From positions 1-7,991 of the IMG/VR virus record IMGVR_UViG_2695420739_000008: DNA of 7,991 nt. The stretch is one strand, 5' to 3'. The position numbers and the translations under genes are program-made. Source of the DNA: a virus. Lineage: Duplodnaviria; Heunggongvirae; Uroviricota; Caudoviricetes. Under the pieces are notes generated by a model. It searched no databases, had not been told where the DNA came from, and worked only from the letters and a program-made list of their open reading frames with translations. How positions within the stretch are numbered: the first letter of the stretch is position 1; each line of letters opens with the position of its first letter. Below, in pieces: positions 1-7,991 of this stretch.

Positions 1-15
1 TAAGTGAATAAAAGT

Positions 16-58
16 AAAAACCCCGTTTGTTGGCACCAAGCGGGGTTTTGTGTTTCTG
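16..58 (+). terminator. Putative rho-independent terminator (tR'-like position upstream of the lysis-type genes)
   Basis: Seen in sequence: stem CCCCG (21-25) / CGGGG (41-45), extendable by the A-run 16-20 against the T-run 46-49, followed by TTTTGTGTTTCTG. The loop is long (15 nt), so this is not a textbook terminator. Confidence 0.4.
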
Positions 59-82
59 ACCTTGAGTAAGGCAAGGGAGAAC

Positions 83-265
83 ATGGCGAAGTATAAACGA
101 ATTCTGTTGAGGTTGACCATGAAAAACGGCCTTGAACTGAAAGCGCCTGTAACTGATGACATCAGCAGAGCACTGGCTTTTGCCATTAAGTGGGTGGCGG
201 TCGGTGTTGCTGTGTCCCCGATGCTGTATGGGCTGGCAAAACTGGTCATTGCGTTGAAATCGTGA
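83..265 (+). CDS. Hypothetical small protein (60 aa) with a basic N-terminus and a C-terminal hydrophobic segment
   Basis: ATG at 83 preceded by AAGGGAGA (short spacer); the tool ORF 50..265 is the same frame from an upstream GTG. The product [11 protein letters not shown]...[29 protein letters not shown] has one long hydrophobic stretch. It sits where a holin would be, but I do not recognise it as lambda S or S21. Confidence 0.45.
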
Positions 266-279
266 AGGGAGGATTAAGC

Positions 280-411
280 ATGTCAGACAAACTCATAACG
301 CTGGCGAAGATCCTCTGTGTAATTGTCGGCATTTCATTTTCACTAATGCTGGTTGCTCTTTTTCTTTCCATGGCCTGGATGATGTTGTCTTCGTCGGGGT
401 TGCTGGGGTGA
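280..411 (+). CDS. Hypothetical single-pass membrane peptide (43 aa)
   Basis: Strong SD AAGGGAGGA (266-274) 5 nt before ATG 280. Product [43 protein letters not shown] has a charged N-terminus and a roughly 26-residue hydrophobic core. Its stop TGA (409-411) overlaps an in-frame GTG (408) of the downstream Rz frame (GTGA). It occupies the endolysin position but is not an endolysin. Confidence 0.5.
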
Positions 412-422
412 ACATAAACCGA

Positions 423-881
423 ATGCTTTCCGCGTTTATCGTTATTCTGCTGGTGGCCTGTGGTGCGCTGTGGATGGCAACAGACCATTACCGTGATAAC
501 GCGATTACCTACAAAGCGCAGCGCGATAACAAAGCCAGTGAACTGAAGCTGGCGAACGCAACCATTACTGATATGCAGGTGCGCCAGCGCGATGTTGCTG
601 CGCTCGATGCAAAATACTCGAGGGAATTAGCCGATGCGAGAGCTGAAAATGAAACTCTTCGCGCTGACGTTGCCGCTGGTCGTAAGCGCCTGCGGATCAA
701 CGCCACCTGTCCAGGCTCCGTGCGTGAAGCCCCCACCACCTCCGGCGTGGATAATGCAACCGGCCCCCGACTGGCAGACACCGCTGAACGGGATTATTTC
801 ACCCTCAGAGAGCGGCTGATGACGATGCACAAGCAACTGGAAGGGGCACAGGAATATATCCGTACTCAGTGCCTGAAATAA
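423..881 (+). CDS. Rz: Rz-type i-spanin (inner-membrane spanin subunit), copy A
   Basis: Translation ...[44 protein letters not shown]...[37 protein letters not shown] closely matches lambda Rz as I recall it: N-terminal TM segment, coiled-coil region, conserved C-terminal Cys. The start may instead be the GTG at 408. Confidence 0.9.
634..819 (+). CDS. Rz1: Rz1-type o-spanin lipoprotein embedded in the +1 frame of Rz, copy A
   Basis: Embedded out-of-frame ORF with signal peptide and lipobox (LVVSAC), proline-rich mature part [30 protein letters not shown], nearly identical to lambda Rz1 as recalled. Confidence 0.85.
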
Positions 882-889
882 GTTTTGTT

Positions 890-1080
890 GATGCGCCGTA
901 TCGTCGCTGTATTCCCTCATTAACAGAGACCGCAGCCCGACAGGGAGACTCCTCTGCGCGAGTGTGCGGGGATAATCAAAAACGATACACACCGGGGTTT
1001 ACCGTGTTAACGGAGCGCGGCGTTGTCCCCTCATAGTCGCCTGTCCGGTGCGATGGTGGAAGAAGCCGGATGTTTATCAC
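890..1080. repeat. Conserved noncoding block downstream of the spanin genes, copy A (paralog of 7061-7250)
   Basis: About 80% identical to 7061-7250 by eye, with small indels (for example CGGGG-TTT versus CGGGTTTTT). No ORF is conserved between the two copies, so it is probably non-coding. Confidence 0.6.
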
Positions 1081-1231
1081 TATTAATTGATGACACAGAA
1101 ATGGATTCATTGAATTTCAGCACGTTTTTGTATTCGTGTTATTGAACATCTGTTTATTTTACTTTTAACATATTGATAATAAAAAGAGCTGTAAATCTTT
1201 AGATGAGTCGATTTTGTCCGGGGAAGTTCAA

Positions 1232-1372
1232 ATGGATTTTATGCTGACGGTTTCTGGTGTGGTTATCCTGTCCATTGCTTATATTGCAGATAAATATGGC
1301 TGCCATTTGTTATCACGTATTGGCGCTTATTGTTCGTTGATGCTGATTTTCTCGTCGCTTTTTTTTGAGTAA
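1232..1372 (+). CDS. Possible small hydrophobic peptide (46 aa); may be non-coding
   Basis: ATG 1232 preceded by GGGGAAG; product MDFMLTVSGVVILSIAYIADKYGCHLLSRIGAYCSLMLIFSSLFFE. Lies in an AT-rich block with promoter-like TTGAAC and TG-A-TAAT elements upstream (1142-1182). It is below the ORF-track length cut-off and there is no homology evidence. Confidence 0.25.
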   Translation: MDFMLTVSGVVILSIAYIADKYGCHLLSRIGAYCSLMLIFSSLFFE

Positions 1373-1504
1373 GTTATATTAATTATAACAAATAATTTTC
1401 TGTGTTATTTTTTCAGGCTATCCCGTCAGAGGGGAAGCCTGTACTGCCGGGGAGCGAATGGAAAACTGATGTGTCCGGTAACTGCGTGTTCTGTGAACAC
1501 CATG

Positions 1505-1690
1505 TTACTTAATTATGTAATTCATACCCGAATTCTCTGTTGACAGCCTTCTTCTGCAGGCTTCAATAACCCACGCTGAAAAGTTTCCTGAACCTTTCAG
1601 ATCAAGAGCGATGTTAATTTGTTCAATCATCTGGTTTGGAAATCGGATGTTGCGGGTTGTTGTTCTGCGGGTTCTGTTCTTTGATGACAT
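1505..1690 (-). CDS. Small Arc/MetJ-like ribbon-helix-helix DNA-binding protein (61 aa), putative
   Basis: Minus-strand ORF with SD GGGGA 6 nt before the ATG. Product MSSKNRTRRTTTRNIRFPNQMIEQINIALDLKGSGNFSAWVIEACRRRL... has a basic N-terminal tail, a beta-strand-like NIRFP, and two helices, which resembles the Arc motif (FNLRWP...) as I recall it. This is the only gene in the window on the opposite strand. Confidence 0.45.
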   Translation of the reverse strand: MSSKNRTRRTTTRNIRFPNQMIEQINIALDLKGSGNFSAWVIEACRRRLSTENSGMNYIIK

Positions 1691-1752
1691 AATGTTTCCC
1701 CATATTCAGTGTTGCTGATTTGTATTATCTGAAGTTGCTTTTACGTTAATTT

Positions 1753-1783
1753 GACGCAGATCAATTAATACGATACCTGCGTC
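1753..1783. promoter_or_regulatory. Inverted repeat GACGCAG-N17-CTGCGTC upstream of the minus-strand RHH gene (candidate operator)
   Basis: Perfect 7-bp inverted repeat (1753-1759 and 1777-1783) with an AT-rich spacer containing ATTAAT, 60-95 nt upstream of the RHH start codon on the minus strand. Confidence 0.3.
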
Positions 1784-1866
1784 ATAATTGATTATTTCTC
1801 GTGGTTTGATGGCGTACACACATGTTGTGATAAACCTTATATAGATGATAATCATTATCATTTCGT

Positions 1867-2291
1867 GGGTCCTTTCCGGCGATCCGACCGGTTACGGGGC
1901 GGCGACCTCGCGGGTTTTCGCTATTTATGAAAATTTTCCGGGAACCATGTCCGGTTTCTCTTCAAGTTAACTATATGAAAAATATAAAAACAGGTCTTCT
2001 GTGAACCGGACATGCACAAAAAATAGACATGTAAGCCGGACATGACCGGTTTTGTTGTGATTGTGAGGTGAGAGTTTTTGCGAGGTGAGGAGTGGCTACG
2101 CAGACTGAAGTTGCCAGGCATTTAAGTCTGACCGATCGCCAGCTTCGCAGATTGCAGAAATTGCCGGGTGCCCCGATATCAAATAAGCGAGGGCAACTGG
2201 ATCTGGATGCCTGGCGCGATTTTTACATATCGTATCTGAGGAGAAGTAAAAACGATGTGCCTGATGGCGATAGCGAAGACGACTATGAGGA
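1867..2291 (+). repeat. 425-bp direct repeat, copy A (cos site plus 5' 200 nt of the terminase small-subunit gene)
   Basis: Matches 7329-7753 at a constant offset of 5,462 bp with 5 mismatches (1881, 1889, 2016, 2025, 2035) by direct reading. Sequences diverge immediately outside both boundaries. Confidence 0.9.
1875..2053 (+). other. Lambda-type cos site, copy A: cosQ, cosN (1897-1908) and cosB with R3 (1946-1956, inverted), AT-rich IHF-like I1, R2 (2004-2014), R1 (2034-2044)
   Basis: GTTACG|GGGCGGCGACCT|CGCGGGTTTTCGCTATTTATGAAAATTTTCCGG matches the joined right and left ends of lambda DNA as I recall them. Three copies of a CCGGACATG-type element, one inverted, flank an A/T-rich segment, as in lambda cosB. 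Confidence 0.8.
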
Positions 2292-2352
2292 ACGCATGGC
2301 GCGGCCTTTTTTTTATGACCTGCCACTGGCAGATGGTCATCCTGTGATTTGA
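2092..2352 (+). CDS. Truncated terminase small subunit (Nu1-like residues 1-67, the winged-HTH DNA-binding region) fused to a 19-aa unrelated tail; possibly a gene remnant
   Basis: GTG start with SD GAGGTGAGGAG. The first 67 codons are identical to the gene at 7554. After position 2291 the sequence diverges and the frame ends after RMARPFFYDLPLADGHPVI. Confidence 0.65.
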   Translation: MATQTEVARHLSLTDRQLRRLQKLPGAPISNKRGQLDLDAWRDFYISYLRRSKNDVPDGDSEDDYEERMARPFFYDLPLADGHPVI

Positions 2353-2400
2353 TTCCGGTTCCGGCTTTTTAACTCTGTTCCTGTACACGGGAGAAATTCG

Positions 2401-4338
2401 ATGTCGATTAAACATTATGATGTTGTCAGGGCGGCGTCGCCGTCAGATCTTGCGGAAAAGCTGACACACAAACTGAAAGAGGGCTGGCAGCCGTTTGGTA
2501 GTCCTGTGGCCATAACCCCTTATACCCTGATGCAGGCGATTGCCGCGGAGGGGGATGTGACCACGCCAGTGGTTGTGCCCGGCACGGGGGATGGTGGCTA
2601 TCCGGGAGTGGTCACCACGGAGCCAGATTATTACTACGTTATTCCACTGGCCGGGCAGTCGAACGGCATGGCTTACGGTGAGGGGCTTCCTCTGCCGCAG
2701 ACATATGACCGTCCTGACCCGCGTATAAAGCAACTGGCTCGTCGCAGCACAGTGACGCCGGATGGCGCTCCCTGTAAATATAACGACATTATTCCGGCAG
2801 ACCACTGTCTGCATGATGTACAGGACATGAGCCGTCTTAACCATCCGAAAGCTGACCTGTCGAAAGGTCAGTACGGAACCGTGGGGCAGGGGCTGCATAT
2901 TGCCAAAAAGCTGCTGCCGTTTATACCGGCGAATGCGGGTATTCTTCTGGTTCCGTGCTGCCGTGGTGGTTCAGCTTTCACCACCGGGGCAGATGGAACA
3001 TACAGTGACGTGACCGGTGCCTCAGAGAGTTCTACCCGCTGGGGTGTGGGCAGGCCGCTGTATAAGGATCTCATCGGTCGTACAAAAGCCGCGCTGGCAA
3101 AGAACCCGAAAAATGTGCTGCTTGCCGTGGTGTGGATGCAGGGGGAATTTGACTTTGACGGAACGCCAGCAAATCACACAGCCCGTTTTACAGAAGTAGT
3201 GGAACAATATCGTACGGACCTTGCAGATATGGTGGGACAGTGCGCTGGTGGTTCTGCTGACGGTGTTCCCTGGATATGTGGAGACACAACTTATTTCTGG
3301 AAGCAGAAGAGCGAATCCACTTACCAGACGGTGTACGGCAGTTACAAAAACAAAACGGAAAAGAATATTCACTTTGTGCCGTTCATGACCGATGAGAACG
3401 GAGCAAATGTCCCGACGAACAAACCGGAAGAAGACCCGGATATTCCGGCATCAGGATATTACGGTGCGGCCTCCCGGACGTCGGCAAACTGGACGTCAGC
3501 AGACCGTGCGAGCCATTTCAGCTCATGGGCACGCAGGGGGATTATTTCTGACCGTCTTGCCTCAGCGATTCTTCTCCATGCAGGACGGACGGCTGAACTG
3601 GTGGGTGGGGAACAGGTTGTGATGCCGCCGGATGAGAAGCCGTCACCGGACACACCATCAACACCGTCAACGGACGGGAAATCAGTGACAACGCTGCTTT
3701 ATTACCGTGCAACAGAGTCAGGTGGTTTACTGAATCCGCAGGGATGGGGAGCTGAAGGAGGGCGTGCATTGGTAGTTGATGATGCAGGTGCTGCAGGAGG
3801 TAAGGCGCTGAGGTGGACCAAACAGACAGGAAGTTCCTCGTGGTTTATGCAGCATGATGTCGGTAATGGCGCAGACCTGCTGGAGAAGGGCGGGCTTATC
3901 AGTTGTCGTTTTAAAGTTGATGGCACACTGACAGCTAATCAGTACGCACTGGCGCTGTACTGGCCGGTTTCTTCACTGCCTCAGGGCGTCACACTGGAAG
4001 GTAATGCCGGTCATAACCTGCTGGCGTCGTTTTACGTACAGAGCGATGCCACAGACCTTAATGTGATGTACCACAAGGGAAATGCTGGTCAGAACACGAA
4101 GCTGGGGTCATTCGGCGCATTTGATAACGAATGGCATACGCTGGGCTTCCGTTTTGCCGGTAACAACAGTATTGAGGTGACGCCGGTCATTGATGGTAAG
4201 GACGGGACGCCGTTCATGCTGTCACAGTCACCGGTCGGCACGTTTACGGCAGACAAATTGCGCGTGACCGATATCACTAGCGGTGCGACATATCCGGTGC
4301 TGATTGAAAGTATAACAGTGGAAGTGAATAACCCGTAA
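2401..4338 (+). CDS. nanS-p: Prophage-encoded sialate O-acetylesterase of the NanS-p type (645 aa): N-terminal DUF1737-like region, SGNH/SASA esterase domain, C-terminal carbohydrate-binding-like region
   Basis: SD GGGAGA 6 nt upstream of the ATG. N-terminus MSIKHYDVVRAASPSDLAEKL...GWQPFGSP and the GQSN motif (Ser87, nt 2659-2661) are typical of SGNH-type sialate O-acetylesterases. The 645-aa size and the position immediately upstream of the S-R-Rz lysis genes match the nanS-p genes of EHEC Stx prophages as I recall them. Confidence 0.85.
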   Translation: MSIKHYDVVRAASPSDLAEKLTHKLKEGWQPFGSPVAITPYTLMQAIAAEGDVTTPVVVPGTGDGGYPGVVTTEPDYYYVIPLAGQSNGMAYGEGLPLPQTYDRPDPRIKQLARRSTVTPDGAPCKYNDIIPADHCLHDVQDMSRLNHPKADLSKGQYGTVGQGLHIAKKLLPFIPANAGILLVPCCRGGSAFTTGADGTYSDVTGASESSTRWGVGRPLYKDLIGRTKAALAKNPKNVLLAVVWMQGEFDFDGTPANHTARFTEVVEQYRTDLADMVGQCAGGSADGVPWICGDTTYFWKQKSESTYQTVYGSYKNKTEKNIHFVPFMTDENGANVPTNKPEEDPDIPASGYYGAASRTSANWTSADRASHFSSWARRGIISDRLASAILLHAGRTAELVGGEQVVMPPDEKPSPDTPSTPSTDGKSVTTLLYYRATESGGLLNPQGWGAEGGRALVVDDAGAAGGKALRWTKQTGSSSWFMQHDVGNGADLLEKGGLISCRFKVDGTLTANQYALALYWPVSSLPQGVTLEGNAGHNLLASFYVQSDATDLNVMYHKGNAGQNTKLGSFGAFDNEWHTLGFRFAGNNSIEVTPVIDGKDGTPFMLSQSPVGTFTADKLRVTDITSGATYPVLIESITVEVNNP

Positions 4339-4485
4339 GCAGGAAAAAAAGGCCGCCGGGGCAGGGAAAACAAGGAGCCAGAACCGGCGGCAAATGTCGT
4401 TATATCCAAAGCAAAACATGCAGGACACTTTTTTAACCAACAGGTATTAACGATGTCAACACCATATCAATAACCGGGAGGGATA

Positions 4486-4668
4486 ATGAGATTTGTACAG
4501 CTTATTTTATTGTATTTCTGCACGGTGGTGTGCACGTTATATCTGGTAAGTGGCGGGTATAAGGTTATCCGGAACTATATACGCAAAAAGATTGATGCCG
4601 CGGCGGCGGAAAAAATCAGCGCCAGCCAGTCAGCCGGAACAAAACCCGAAGAGCCTCTCATTTCGTAG
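4486..4668 (+). CDS. Hypothetical small membrane protein (60 aa)
   Basis: SD GGGAGGG 4 nt before ATG 4486. N-terminal hydrophobic segment LILLYFCTVVCTLYLV followed by a basic, hydrophilic tail. Confidence 0.5.
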   Translation: MRFVQLILLYFCTVVCTLYLVSGGYKVIRNYIRKKIDAAAAEKISASQSAGTKPEEPLIS

Positions 4669-4705
4669 CAACTTTCTTAACAACACCTTTCAACGAGAAA
4701 ATCCT

Positions 4706-4975
4706 ATGTCAGAAATAAAATCTCTGGTCACTGCTGAAGCAGTGAAGGACGTCCTGCGCTCTGAAGAAGTCAGAAGCGCACTGAAACAGCAACTCCGCCA
4801 GAATCTTGAGGCGCGTCTTGATGCTGAAGTGGATGCCATTCTGGATGAGCTGCTGGGGGGACCGGCTGCTCCTGAGCCTGAAGACGGCGCGGGTGACAGT
4901 GCTGTTTCAGATGGCGTTGTGTCTCAGCCTGACGGTAGCAGTGAGCCTCAGCCTGGCGGCGAAATGATGATGTAA
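4706..4975 (+). CDS. Hypothetical acidic protein (89 aa)
   Basis: ATG 4706 (MSEIKSLVTAEAVKDVL...) with a weak SD. Helical, charged N-terminal half and an acidic Pro/Gly/Ser-rich C-terminus. The tool ORF 4550..4975 is the same frame with an N-terminal extension that overlaps the preceding ORF. Confidence 0.5.
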   Translation: MSEIKSLVTAEAVKDVLRSEEVRSALKQQLRQNLEARLDAEVDAILDELLGGPAAPEPEDGAGDSAVSDGVVSQPDGSSEPQPGGEMMM

Positions 4976-5050
4976 CCATACGCAGGGGCTGTCGGTGTGA
5001 GCTGATGCCCCTCCTGTTGTTGTGAGCTTCCGGATTGCGGGAGACGGGGT

Positions 5051-5266
5051 ATGTACCAGATGGAAAAAATAACAACGGGTGTGTCATACACCACGTCAGC
5101 GGTGGGGACGGGATACTGGCTACTGCAGTTGCTGGACAAAGTCTCCCCATCCCAGTGGGTGGCAATAGGCGTATTGGGTAGCCTGGTGTTTGGCTTGCTG
5201 ACGTATCTGACAAACCTTTATTTCAAGATTAAAGAAGATAAGCGTAAGGCTGCGAGAGGTGAATAA
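5051..5266 (+). CDS. S: Class II holin (pinholin) of the phage 21 S family, with dual-start motif Met1/Met4
   Basis: 71-aa product [71 protein letters not shown] closely matches S21 as recalled: two TMDs and a basic C-terminus. Its stop overlaps the endolysin start. Confidence 0.9.
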
Positions 5267-5763
5267 TGTCGCCATCATTACGCAAGGCTGTTGCTGCTGC
5301 TATTGGTGGTGGGGCTGTTGCCATAGCGTCTGTGCTCATCACTGGTCCGAGTGGTGACGATGGCCTGGAAGGTGTCAGCTACATACCATACGAAGATATC
5401 GTTGGCGTATGGACTGTATGTCACGGACACACCGGAAAAGACATCATTCCCGGTAAAACGTATACCGAAGCAGAATGCAAAGCCCTCCTGAATAAAGACC
5501 TTGCCATGGTCGCCAGACAAATTAACCCGTACATCAAAGTCGATATACCGGAAACAACGCGCGGCGCTCTTTACTCGTTCGTTTACAACGTGGGCGCTGG
5601 TAATTTCAGAACATCGACGCTTCTTCGCAAAATAAACCAGGGTGATATCAAAGGCGCATGTGACCAGCTACGTCGCTGGACATACGCTGGCGGTAAGCAA
5701 TGGAAAGGGCTGATGACCCGTCGTGATATTGAGCGTGAAGTCTGTTTGTGGGGGCAGCAATGA
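5266..5763 (+). CDS. R: SAR endolysin (phage 21 R-type lysozyme with N-terminal signal-anchor-release domain)
   Basis: N-terminal Gly/Ala-rich weakly hydrophobic segment [19 protein letters not shown]4-lysozyme-like catalytic residues at E35, D44 and T50 ([17 protein letters not shown]). Overall match to R21 as recalled. ATGA overlap with the downstream Rz. Confidence 0.92.
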
Positions 5764-6227
5764 GCAGGGTAACCGCGATTATCTCCGCTCTGGTTATTTG
5801 CATCATCGTCTGCCTGTCATGGGCTGTTAATCATTACCGTGATAACGCCATCGCCTACAAAGAGCAGCGCGACAAAAACGCCAGAGAGCTGAAGCAGGCG
5901 ACCGCCACCATTACTGACATGCAGAAGCGCCAGCGTGCTGCTGATGCACTCGATGCTAAATACACGAAGGAGTTAGCCAATGCGAAAGCTGAAAATGATG
6001 CTCTTCGGCGTAAGCTTGATAATGGTGGTCGGGTGCTCGTCAAAGGAAAATGCTCTGTGCCATCCTCAGCCGAAACCTCCAGCGCCTCCGGCATGGGCAA
6101 TGATGCCACCGTCGAACTCTCTTCAGTTGCTGGACGAAACGTTCTCGGTATCCGGGACGGAATTATCCGTGACCAAACAGCACTGAGAACGCTTCAGGAG
6201 TACATCAGGACGCAATGCCTGAAATAA
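5760..6227 (+). CDS. Rz: Rz-type i-spanin, copy B
   Basis: [45 protein letters not shown]...[12 protein letters not shown]: the N-terminus is nearly identical to lambda Rz as recalled, with the conserved C-terminal Cys. The tool ORF from 5748 is a GTG extension. Confidence 0.9.
5980..6186 (+). CDS. Rz1: Rz1-type o-spanin lipoprotein embedded in the +1 frame of Rz, copy B
   Basis: [21 protein letters not shown]...[14 protein letters not shown]: signal peptide, lipobox (VVGC), proline-rich mature region. Same frame relationship to Rz as in copy A. Confidence 0.85.
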
Positions 6228-6259
6228 TTTTTTTGCAAATCACAAAGTCAATTTAATGA

Positions 6260-6282
6260 GCCTCGCGATGCGGGGCTTTTTT
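6260..6282 (+). terminator. Putative rho-independent terminator downstream of Rz/Rz1 copy B
   Basis: Stem GCCTCGC (6260-6266) / GCGGGGC (6270-6276), 7 bp with one G-U pair and a 3-nt loop, followed by TTTTTT (6277-6282). Confidence 0.5.
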
Positions 6283-6425
6283 ATGTCCGCAGTAAACGCG
6301 CATCTCACGCGCATATTAACGAGAGCCTTTCAGTAAGCGAGCCTGAGAAATGCCGTTATAGGTGGCGACCTCTCTCGGGCGGCTTTTCTGTGAGACAGGC
6401 TCACTTTCTAAAAGGTAAAGACGCT

Positions 6426-6950
6426 ATGAATAATCATTCAGTTATTCCAGCCTTCGACTTCCGAGAAATGGTGCAAGCCAAAAACGGAGAGGTCGTTACC
6501 ACATCCAGAAAAATTGCCAAGTACTTCGGCAAGCGACACGGTGATGTTCTCAGGAAAATCGAGCAGGTTAAGGTTGATTGCTCGCGTGAGTTTAGCCAAC
6601 GCAATTTTGCGTCGGCTGATTATATCGATGAGCAGGGCAAGGTTCGCCCGATGTACAGCCTGACGAAAGATGGCTGGATCATGGTTGTGATGGGGTTCAC
6701 CGGGAAAGCTGCTGCGGCAATCAAGGAGAGCTATATCGCAGCATTCAACTGGATGGCAGAGCAACTGAGCCGCCGCATGGCAATTGGCGAAGAAATGCAG
6801 CACCGCTACGCCATCAAAGAAACACGCTCAAAGCTGAAAGGTACGATCGGCAGTCGGTTAATGAACGAACGGAAGAGAGAGAAGCGTGTCCTGGCTGTCG
6901 AGCATGAATACATTTTGCAGGTGACACAGCCTGAACTGCTGATTAATTGA
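6426..6950 (+). CDS. rha: Rha-family phage regulatory protein (antirepressor-like N-terminal domain)
   Basis: N-terminal region ...FDFREMVQAKNGEVVTTSRKIAKYFGKRHGDVLRKIEQ...MYSLTKDGWIMVVMGFTGKAAAAIKESYIAAFNWM matches the Rha/pRha domain pattern as recalled. Start ATG 6426 has a weak SD; an upstream GTG at 6390 is possible. Confidence 0.75.
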   Translation: MNNHSVIPAFDFREMVQAKNGEVVTTSRKIAKYFGKRHGDVLRKIEQVKVDCSREFSQRNFASADYIDEQGKVRPMYSLTKDGWIMVVMGFTGKAAAAIKESYIAAFNWMAEQLSRRMAIGEEMQHRYAIKETRSKLKGTIGSRLMNERKREKRVLAVEHEYILQVTQPELLIN

Positions 6951-7060
6951 AGATGTCATTACAAAGCCTATCTACGGGTGGGCTTGATAATGGCTTATAC
7001 CCTGCACGGGATAACTTAACTGATATCCCTTTTAACGGATAAAGGTATTCAGGCCTGACA

Positions 7061-7250
7061 CATCATGCGCTGTATCGTCGCCGTATTCCCGCATTAACCA
7101 TGACCGTAGCCCGACGGGGAACTCCTCTGCGCGAGTGTGCGGGAATAATCAAAAACGATGCACACCGGGTTTTTACCGCGCTAATGATTCGCGGGTTTGT
7201 CCCTCATGCTCGCCAGTCTTGTGCGAGGGTGGAAGAAACAGGGCATGTAT
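7061..7250. repeat. Conserved noncoding block downstream of the lysis/Rha genes, copy B (paralog of 890-1080)
   Basis: About 80% identical to 890-1080 with indels. The ORFs the tool places here (7100..7432, 7197..7466) are not conserved in copy A. Confidence 0.6.
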
Positions 7251-7328
7251 TCAGGAGCGTGCGACCGTGGTCGCACGACGCTGGTCTGTCAGACATTGAA
7301 TTCATTGCGAATAAACCAGAACGCTTGC

Positions 7329-7753
7329 GGGTCCTTTCCGGCAATCCGACAGGTTACGGGGCGGCGACCTCGCGGGTTTTCGCTATTTATGAAAATTTTC
7401 CGGGAACCATGTCCGGTTTCTCTTCAAGTTAACTATATGAAAAATATAAAAACAGGTCTTCTGTGAACCGGACATGCGCAAAAAATGGACATGTAAACCG
7501 GACATGACCGGTTTTGTTGTGATTGTGAGGTGAGAGTTTTTGCGAGGTGAGGAGTGGCTACGCAGACTGAAGTTGCCAGGCATTTAAGTCTGACCGATCG
7601 CCAGCTTCGCAGATTGCAGAAATTGCCGGGTGCCCCGATATCAAATAAGCGAGGGCAACTGGATCTGGATGCCTGGCGCGATTTTTACATATCGTATCTG
7701 AGGAGAAGTAAAAACGATGTGCCTGATGGCGATAGCGAAGACGACTATGAGGA
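7329..7753 (+). repeat. 425-bp direct repeat, copy B (cos site plus 5' 200 nt of the terminase small-subunit gene)
   Basis: See copy A (1867-2291). Confidence 0.9.
7337..7515 (+). other. Lambda-type cos site, copy B: cosQ, cosN (7359-7370), cosB R3 (7408-7418), I1, R2 (7466-7476), R1 (7496-7506)
   Basis: Same elements as copy A. Differences from copy A are confined to two positions in the cosQ-proximal region and three in the R2-R1 segment. Confidence 0.8.
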
Positions 7754-7991
7754 GAAATTGCTTATTGCCAGATGGGAACTGACAGCAGAACAGGCTGTTA
7801 CACAGCAGCTAAAAAATGAGGTGTCAAAAGGAAAACTGATTGACACCGGATTCTGTATTTTTGCCCTCAGTAAGCTGGCAATGGCGTTATCCAGTACGCT
7901 TGATTCCATCCCTTTATCCATGCAGCGACAGTTTCCTGATTTAACACCGCGCCATCTTGACCATCTGAAAACCCTTATTGCGAAGGGGGCA
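7554..7991 (+). CDS. Terminase small subunit (Nu1-like), 3' end outside the window
   Basis: GTG start with SD GAGGTGAGGAG. N-terminal HTH-like region; C-terminal part ...IDTGFCIFALSKLAMALSSTLDSIPLSMQRQFPDLTPRHLDHLK resembles lambda gpNu1 (...ETAFCTFVLSRIAGEIASILDGLPLSVQRRFPELENRHVDFLK) as recalled. The ORF is still open at the window end. Confidence 0.85.
   Translation, partial: MATQTEVARHLSLTDRQLRRLQKLPGAPISNKRGQLDLDAWRDFYISYLRRSKNDVPDGDSEDDYEEKLLIARWELTAEQAVTQQLKNEVSKGKLIDTGFCIFALSKLAMALSSTLDSIPLSMQRQFPDLTPRHLDHLKTLIAKGA

Follow-up and report, generated by a model that had tools for sequence, protein, structure and literature searches.

Positions 1 to 7,991 of the IMG/VR virus record IMGVR_UViG_2695420739_000008 (Caudoviricetes), a stretch of 7,991 nucleotides (nt) here called the window, open with a spanin gene pair that is preceded by two small open reading frames (ORFs). 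Between positions 16 and 881 lie a GC-rich hairpin (17-49), ORF1 (83-265), ORF2 (280-411), the i-spanin gene Rz (408-881) and the o-spanin gene Rz1 (634-819), with all four genes on the plus strand. The earlier note on this DNA, made from its letters alone, had seen a spanin pair with no recognisable holin or endolysin, and had considered either a degraded lysis cassette or an uncharacterised small-protein module coupled to the spanins. If true, this would have meant a spanin acting without peptidoglycan degradation or a new mode of lysis, which is not the case here. The region is the distal part of a normal lambdoid late lysis cassette of the phage-21 type, the order of which is S21-type holin, an optional ORF of 185 amino acids (aa), a lysozyme R of the signal-anchor-release (SAR) type, the hairpin, ORF1, ORF2 and Rz/Rz1.

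The genes that seemed to be missing sit directly upstream in the relatives. E. coli NZ_CP148579.1 is 99.8% identical to window positions 1-1000 and has, directly upstream, a class II (S21) holin (PF04971, 9e-33), the 185-aa ORF and a lysozyme whose stop codon lies 75 nt before window position 1 and whose Gly/Ala-rich N-terminal segment is of the SAR type. In the viable phage PhiR5_2 (PV340546) the order is likewise holin S, lysozyme R, the two small ORFs, then Rz. ORF1 or ORF2 served as query to collect a further 150 related loci from IMG/VR; a lysozyme is present in every one of them that reaches far enough upstream, and a holin too where the flank allows. Among the 150 with both genes complete, 148 have 155-156 nt between the lysozyme stop and the ORF1 ATG, and two have 185 nt. 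The absence of a holin and an endolysin holds inside 16-881 alone and is almost certainly an artefact of the window edge, with both genes just off it, as the earlier note had itself allowed when it warned that an endolysin could lie further upstream. A canonical S/R pair upstream, which it had proposed to look for, is present as judged from the relatives, and the arrangement of two ORFs before Rz recurs in the same order in about 150 IMG/VR loci. The holin-endolysin pair just upstream in a near-identical genome and in the relatives rules out both a degraded cassette and a replacement of S and R.

In the relatives R directly precedes ORF1, which makes ORF1 and ORF2 an insert between R and Rz and not occupants of the S and R positions that had been assigned to them. 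R adjoins or overlaps Rz without any insert in lambda, DLP12 and Qin and in a second cassette of the window, whereas here 480 bp, consisting of the hairpin and two small membrane-protein genes, separate the two. Of 5426 complete E. coli genomes, 1739 carry DNA of this module, 1036 of them with at least 80% coverage (19-32%). This frequency of roughly one fifth to one third of E. coli genomes, together with purifying selection, membership in PHROG families and the tight junction of ORF2 with the spanin gene, shows that the small ORFs are not frame remnants of a deleted S/R pair. What is left of the earlier proposal is a small-protein module that may serve as an accessory to S, R, Rz and Rz1, not as a substitute for S and R.

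The spanin pair itself was correctly recognised. Rz, which starts at GTG 408 or at ATG 423 (the start chosen by the Prokaryotic Genome Annotation Pipeline, PGAP), matches PF03245 over residues 31-155 (6e-50) and phrog_13 (2.7e-75), and has a transmembrane (TM) segment within residues 1-28, as is characteristic of an i-spanin. Rz1, in the +1 frame inside Rz, matches PF06085 (1.8e-21) and is identified as the o-spanin lipoprotein by its lipobox (VSAC) and its embedding in the i-spanin gene. The company of a holin and an endolysin expected for spanins is found in the relatives, where S21 holin and lysozyme lie upstream. The ATG from which Rz usually starts in related alleles aligns with ATA at 414-416 here.

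The 185-aa ORF between holin and lysozyme (locus L001, 7799-8356; phrog_1085, no Pfam match) is present in about one third of the related loci, at the position held by ydfR in the Qin prophage of K-12.

The hairpin, ORF1 and ORF2

The terminator-like hairpin that had been noticed upstream of the small ORFs was recovered at 17-49 by both a terminator scan and folding. It has 13 pairs with a free energy of -18.9 kcal/mol (z = -3.1 against shuffled sequences) and a 3' T-run, and is flanked by an A-tract before and a T-tract after, giving an intrinsic terminator that is bidirectional in form. It marks the 5' boundary of the ORF1 module: a homologous hairpin stands 30-45 nt upstream of the start (about 70 nt in locus L272) in 12 of 12 diverse ORF1-family loci, whatever their neighbours. 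Across these loci the base of the stem is kept, with a few compensatory changes and divergent upper stems. A simple scan found terminators before the holin and before ORF1, and no plus-strand sigma-70-like promoter between holin and Rz. In lambdoid phages, the Q-modified polymerase passes through such terminators. Since no plus-strand promoter was found and a terminator precedes ORF1, both ORFs are probably late-only genes, which would be transcribed solely by the Q-antiterminated late RNA polymerase along with the lysis genes and would be silent in the lysogen (for control at PR', see PMC7547250).

ORF1 and ORF2 are genuine conserved genes for very small membrane proteins. The 60-aa ORF1, as the earlier note had it, is called as an ORF, annotated as a coding sequence by PGAP and preceded by a Shine-Dalgarno (SD) sequence, AAGGGAG, at 73-79. 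It matches phrog_1115 (2.6e-42), phrog_4493 and phrog_3246, all annotated as of unknown function. Coding selection is evident from the ratio of non-synonymous to synonymous differences (pN/pS), which over 38 alleles is 0.28 in frame versus 0.54 and 2.3 in the other frames; the comparators are Rz (0.40), Rz1 (0.46), lysozyme (0.11) and holin (0.18). The product is strongly cationic, with 10 K/R versus 3 D/E and a net charge of +7, and was modelled by AlphaFold2 (AF2) as two helices, residues 2-14 and a long C-terminal one at 24-59 (pLDDT 76), a model without a match in BFVD. Its best 19-residue hydrophobic stretch is 38-56 (Kyte-Doolittle 1.88), with a net charge of +5 in the N-terminal flank, which suggests an N-in, tail-anchored topology. 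Distant relatives share a core, MKNGLExDAPVTxEI, followed by the hydrophobic helix, and many end in RWW. The family is narrow, because a HMMER profile search of 1.84 billion representatives gave 22 matches, all of them short relatives of the same family. Neither ORF1 nor ORF2 has a family match in Pfam, NCBIfam or PADLOC; a DUF3930 match that appeared in the family searches was discarded as it fell below threshold (E = 0.02-0.08), and an Rfam scan of the window gave nothing meaningful.

A putative second start lies within ORF1. The short form (119-265, 48 aa) would begin at Met13 (MKNGLE...) behind the SD sequence GAGG at 109-112, and in all 10 diverse family members compared GAGG or GGAGG precedes the internal ATG by 5-7 nt. 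A rare AGG codon creates this internal SD (GAG-G in L275), and for nine of the ten members the chance of obtaining it under synonymous recoding is 0.013-0.02. In the 12-residue N-terminal extension the Ile and Leu codons vary synonymously, and therefore the extension is translated too. ORF1 thus probably yields a 60-aa and a 48-aa isoform, judging by the codons and SD motifs of the family. The first start may in addition be restrained at the RNA level: folding of positions 1-90 predicts a small plus-strand stem at 60-76, in which CCTTG (60-64) pairs with CAAGG (72-76) and covers part of the ORF1 SD, and the same stem is predicted with different loops in L155, L265 and L272. Such a stem would partly mask the first start and may have a regulatory role.

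ORF2 agrees with its earlier description as a 43-aa single-TM ORF with a strong SD. Its SD, GGGAGG at 267-272, lies 7 nt before the ATG, and its one hydrophobic segment spans residues 11-29 (Kyte-Doolittle 2.89), flanked by K4 and K10 on the N-terminal side and by an uncharged 14-residue C-terminal tail, a charge bias that would place this single-pass peptide N-in/C-out. It matches phrog_4906 (2.1e-23), annotated as of unknown function. Its pN/pS is 0.34 in frame versus 0.86 and 1.8 in the other frames (26 alleles; pS 0.37). Length, TM character and several residues are kept across alleles of 65-100% identity, and K4, V16, G17, S19 and F20 are invariant across the sampled alleles.

The position of ORF2 is as constant as its sequence features: it always stands directly 5' of the next envelope gene, which is Rz or, in cassettes of the type of locus L155, a lipoprotein gene. 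The GTGA overlap with Rz that had been pointed out exists, the ORF2 stop TGA (409-411) overlapping GTG 408, and the same overlap is found in 123 loci, with a distance of 1 nt in 18 more. Translational coupling through this overlap is plausible, not certain, as the start assigned by PGAP is ATG 423. In Min27 and Stx1_14040, ORF2 ends 7 nt before the Rz ATG, and 4 nt separate its end from the lipoprotein ATG in the L155 type. ORF2 keeps its place beside Rz where an antirepressor gene replaces ORF1, and in Min27 its ATG overlaps the stop of ant (TGATG). This constant coupling to the gene at the spanin position suggests either a spanin-linked role or mere translational coupling.

Two further ideas about ORF2 were set aside. 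Descent from a duplicated N-terminal TM domain of Rz was suggested by a weak and inconsistent protein similarity (p about 0.006-0.02, uncorrected) that has no counterpart at the DNA level, and an association between the type of Rz N-terminus and the presence of ORF2 was dropped, the counts being too small and confounded by linkage.

Occurrence in other loci

Relatives of ORF1 were found in E. coli, E. marmotae and Salmonella, and scans of species-level genome contigs found no copy. In phage records, tblastn recovers ORF1 in 14 and full-length ORF2 in 276, the latter mostly Stx1- or Stx2-converting phages, and in most of the records listed ORF2 is unannotated. The ORF2 homologue of Min27, between ant and Rz (L277, 2586-2733), is unannotated even in RefSeq.

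ORF1 relatives lie, as here, between a SAR lysozyme and Rz, including that of Salmonella (L272), where ORF2 is absent. In L265 the relative follows a SAR lysozyme and overlaps a different type of i-spanin, in L267 it follows a SAR lysozyme with a methyltransferase before Rz, and in L259 and L260 the relatives follow another endolysin and overlap small lipoproteins. The second cassette type, represented by L155, consists of Phage_holin_8, Phage_holin_3_7, a GH108 endolysin, two unknown ORFs, the hairpin, ORF1, ORF2 and a 60-aa lipoprotein. In phiSTEC1575-Stx2k the ORF1 relative comes after an M15 endolysin, a context represented by L255. Other relatives separate baseplate gene V from W or the gene for the major tail protein from that for the chaperone, or come after tail fibres. 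ORF1 is therefore best described as a mobile late-operon unit which occurs mostly, though not solely, in lysis cassettes and is tied to no fixed type of holin or endolysin.

The region of ORF1 and ORF2 is highly mosaic (L121, 2934-3030; L045, 2432-2645; L255, 3897-4070). A 27-aa ORF (MSAEFIRAMAFSIRIVAIAVLVWAIRWW) replaces ORF2 in some loci, and other loci have ORF1, ORF2, a partial ORF1 and this 27-aa ORF in series. Across mosaic junctions the gene callers give fused or frameshifted products (e.g. P0213 and P0218). The 27-aa ORF of L121 was considered as a third family and rejected, being a paralogue or a remnant of the ORF1 C-terminus.

Known systems and possible functions

The cassette has gene families and order in common with those of phage 21, DLP12 and lambda, namely an S21 class II holin and a SAR T4-lysozyme-type endolysin (in the relatives) and, in the window, an Rz of the lambda type that contains Rz1. 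The 480-bp insertion sets it apart from lambda, DLP12 and Qin, with their adjoining or overlapping R and Rz. The lysis region of Stx phages (933W and Min27: S, R, ant, Rz, bor) also has an insertion at the same site between R and Rz and carries immediately 5' of Rz an ORF2 homologue of 65-80% identity, usually unannotated; its cargo is an antirepressor gene, in contrast to the hairpin and ORF1 here.

Neither small protein resembles a holin or a lysozyme in Pfam, NCBIfam or PHROG, as the earlier note had held. Holin genes with a dual start for holin and antiholin are exemplified by S107/S105 of lambda and by the 71- and 68-residue products of S21. ORF1 would be similar to these in its two putative in-frame starts, in the extra positive charge of the long form and in the predicted RNA structure at the first start. 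It differs in that its starts are 12 codons apart instead of 2-3, in its single C-terminal hydrophobic segment, in the lack of a charged C-terminal tail and in the lack of homology. Holins have a TM domain with a charged C-terminal domain; the C-terminal flank of ORF2 is uncharged and ORF1 ends four residues after its segment. The conserved internal SD and ATG 12 codons downstream are a feature of ORF1, and ORF2 has no dual-start motif.

Two other classes of small lysis proteins invite comparison. Candidate disruptins are loosely characterised as helical proteins of fewer than 80 aa with a net charge of at least +4 that are encoded with lysis genes. ORF1, with 60 aa, 10 K/R versus 3 D/E, two AF2 helices and a place in a lysis cassette close to where the spanins lie, falls within these loose bounds. 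The disruptin gp28 of phage phiKT was, however, described in a phage without spanins (10.1101/515445), whereas ORF1 coexists with Rz/Rz1 and has a long hydrophobic C-terminal helix, a comparison made by description and not by sequence. The releasin gp25 of Mu (PMC9239132) is, like ORF1, a small cytoplasmic protein tethered to the membrane, and its gene accompanies that of a SAR endolysin. It has an N-terminal TM domain and belongs to DUF2730, in contrast to ORF1, which has its hydrophobic segment at the C-terminus and no DUF2730 match. The partnership with SAR endolysins is not upheld by ORF1 either, as its relatives are also found behind endolysins of the GH108 and M15 kinds, which are not SAR enzymes of the T4-lysozyme type: no hydrophobic segment is visible at the N-terminus of the GH108 endolysin, and Pinto et al. 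class M15 as a canonical endolysin.

The second cassette type, which lies outside this window, has ORF1 and ORF2 followed by a tightly coupled 60-aa lipoprotein. This lipoprotein was named as the o-spanin of phiP27 by Kongari et al. 2018 (PMC6139136), in whose survey the pair had the shortest combined periplasmic length. The lipoprotein (phrog_7528, lipobox LVGC; L155, 3352-3534; L254, which is phiP27, 3495-3683; L255, 4072-4254) follows ORF2 or an ORF1 variant in GH108- or M15-endolysin cassettes without Rz/Rz1. In L155-type loci it is the sole credible lipoprotein of the lysis region, and ORF2 stands at the i-spanin position. The 64-aa ORF that Kongari et al. (PMC6139136) propose as the i-spanin runs antisense to a 90-aa ORF that looks more like a protein, and loci of the L155 type lack it. 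ORF2 was considered as the i-spanin partner of the lipoprotein and rejected, since with only some 15 aa its periplasmic tail could not reach across the periplasm.

The explanation that we favour, with somewhat more confidence than doubt, is a normal cassette with an R-Rz insertion in which ORF1 and ORF2 are late membrane proteins with an accessory role, modulating lysis at its membrane steps. Both would be expressed only with the Q-antiterminated late lysis transcript and would be silent in the lysogen. ORF1 would be made as the 60- and 48-aa isoforms, its first start partly masked by RNA structure in a way that resembles the dual starts of holin and antiholin genes, and ORF2 would be translated in tight coupling with Rz and insert beside Rz in the inner membrane. 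The two proteins would then modulate timing, or the disruption of the envelope by the spanins or otherwise, without replacing the holin or the endolysin.

Several points weigh against this explanation. Many phages have the same S21, R21 and Rz genes but neither of the two ORFs, which are therefore dispensable, and the association of ORF2 with Rz could arise through genetic linkage alone. The relatives of ORF1 in tail and baseplate regions (L262, L263, L258 and L275) have a distribution typical of morons unrelated to lysis. No homology of ORF1 or ORF2 to a holin, antiholin, releasin or defence family was detected, and a literature search by accession, PHROG id, topic and peptide strings returned no study of either. 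The S/R pair upstream of the source itself is deduced from the relatives, and among complete E. coli genomes there is no collinear match to the whole window and none that spans a junction at 2291/2292.

A doubtful alternative is that ORF1, and perhaps ORF2, are morons with a job outside lysis, such as superinfection exclusion, a block to DNA entry or host fitness, at a site that tolerates insertions. This would account for the ORF1 relatives that lie among baseplate and tail genes or behind tail fibres, and is consistent with the other cargo taken up by the R-Rz gap (Ant and Rha genes), with the 185-aa ORF in the S-R gap and with the high mosaicism of the region. A moron as defined by Juhala et al. 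2000, quoted in PMC4104026, is an extra insert among late genes with its own promoter upstream and a terminator downstream. ORF1 is inserted between late genes, but its terminator lies directly upstream and no promoter was found, which reverses the classical layout and speaks against expression in the lysogen. PADLOC gave no matches, and ORF2 was never seen apart from a gene at the spanin position.

Returning to accessory lysis proteins, a bolder version of the favoured explanation would make the hairpin-ORF1 unit and ORF2 a new lysis-accessory class. It would comprise a terminator-gated, dual-start and possibly antisense-controlled ORF1, a spanin-coupled ORF2 acting as a regulator across Stx phages, and an ORF1-ORF2-lipoprotein trio that disrupts the outer membrane in the L155 type, which is devoid of Rz/Rz1. 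We regard this as unlikely.

The antisense control named here belongs to a further alternative, in which ORF1 is a membrane toxin similar to those of type I systems and is held in check by a cis-antisense RNA of about 70 nt, in an architecture like that of symE/SymR. The minus strand carries a promoter-like element at 90-119, inside ORF1 codons 3-13, with a -35 of TGGTCA, an 18-nt spacer and a -10 of TATACT. A transcript from it is a prediction only; it would run over the ORF1 SD and AUG and end at the hairpin, which is always a short distance upstream and whose plus-strand A-tract would provide the U-tract of a minus-strand transcript. The element is found in identical register in 11 of 12 diverse loci, the Tyr codon involved is always TAT, and in L267 a rare AGA codon keeps the first T of the -10. 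The size of ORF1 (60/48 aa, within the approximately 60 aa or less typical of type I toxins), its hydrophobic C-terminal helix and its cationic character also fit a toxin. The site is nevertheless a weak lead, as 15-40% of synonymous recodings of the ORF1 peptide give one and the sequences compared are related, so that the enrichment is weak. Type I toxins have a promoter of their own; for ORF1 no plus-strand promoter-like site was found and a terminator lies immediately upstream. There is also no Rfam family match, nor any sequence relationship with AsxR and AgvB, two anti-sRNAs known from prophages. Taken together, such a toxin appears improbable.

Improbable to the same degree is the proposal that ORF2 is a mere translational-coupling leader with a functionless peptide, which brings ribosomes to a weak Rz start after the separation of R and Rz. 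The usual overlap of Rz with the stop codon of R, the constant closeness of the ORF2 end to the start codon that follows (about 12 nt at most), and the overlap of the ORF2 start with the ant stop in Min27, which forms a chain of coupled genes, would all be explained by such a leader. However, the in-frame pN/pS of ORF2 is low despite high synonymous divergence, its length, TM character and several residues have been kept among divergent alleles, and it has a strong SD of its own in the window. Purifying selection acts on the ORF2 peptide, and pure coupling is therefore less favoured. That the spanins are orphaned in a degraded cassette, or that the small proteins replace holin and endolysin, is very improbable: 16-881 itself contains neither, but every related locus whose flank is long enough has an S21 holin and a SAR lysozyme just upstream, and ORF1 and ORF2 match no holin or lysozyme family.

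While the lysis cassette is ordinary, its accessory genes are a modestly interesting lead: very common E. coli prophages carry in this cassette a conserved pair of genes for small membrane proteins. The release of Shiga toxin depends on phage lysis. The spanin-coupled and unstudied ORF2 is therefore a cheap, testable lead. The constant layout of the ORF1 unit, with its terminator hairpin, its masked first start and its conserved second start, offers a compact case for the gating of toxic late genes.

The second cassette and the rest of the window

A second, complete lysis cassette is located on the plus strand at 5051-6227. It consists of an S21 holin (5051-5266), an R21-type lysozyme (5266-5763), Rz (5760-6227) and Rz1 (5980-6186); R overlaps Rz by ATGA, and ORF1 and ORF2 are absent. 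Upstream of it are a NanS-p-type SASA esterase (2401-4338), a DUF1378 gene (4486-4668) and a DUF826 gene (4703-4975), and downstream a gene of the Rha family (6426-6950).

Collinearity with the closest genome breaks off at 2291/2292, within the gene for the small subunit of the terminase, of which a truncated ORF of 86 aa remains (2092-2352), and beyond this point the sequence jumps to the region upstream of nanS-p. The stretch 7329-7991 repeats 1867-2530 at 98%. Either the junction marks a rare recombinant or the remnant of a tandem prophage, or prophage repeats led to a chimeric assembly.

Downstream of each cassette there is a 58-nt repeat (943-1000 and 7116-7173, 91% identical), GGGAGACTCCTCTGCGCGAGTGTGCGGGGATAATCAAAAACGATACACACCGGGGTTT, which has no Rfam match. 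A 46-aa hydrophobic ORF at 1232-1372 (MDFMLTVSGVVILSIAYIADKYG...) corresponds to a RefSeq hypothetical protein, follows Rz in a subset of related loci and has no match in Pfam, PHROGs, NCBIfam or PADLOC. On the minus strand at 1505-1690, a YlcI/YnfO-family gene (DUF3950, 8.8e-19) stands between the lysis region and the terminase fragment, as it does in DLP12 and Qin.

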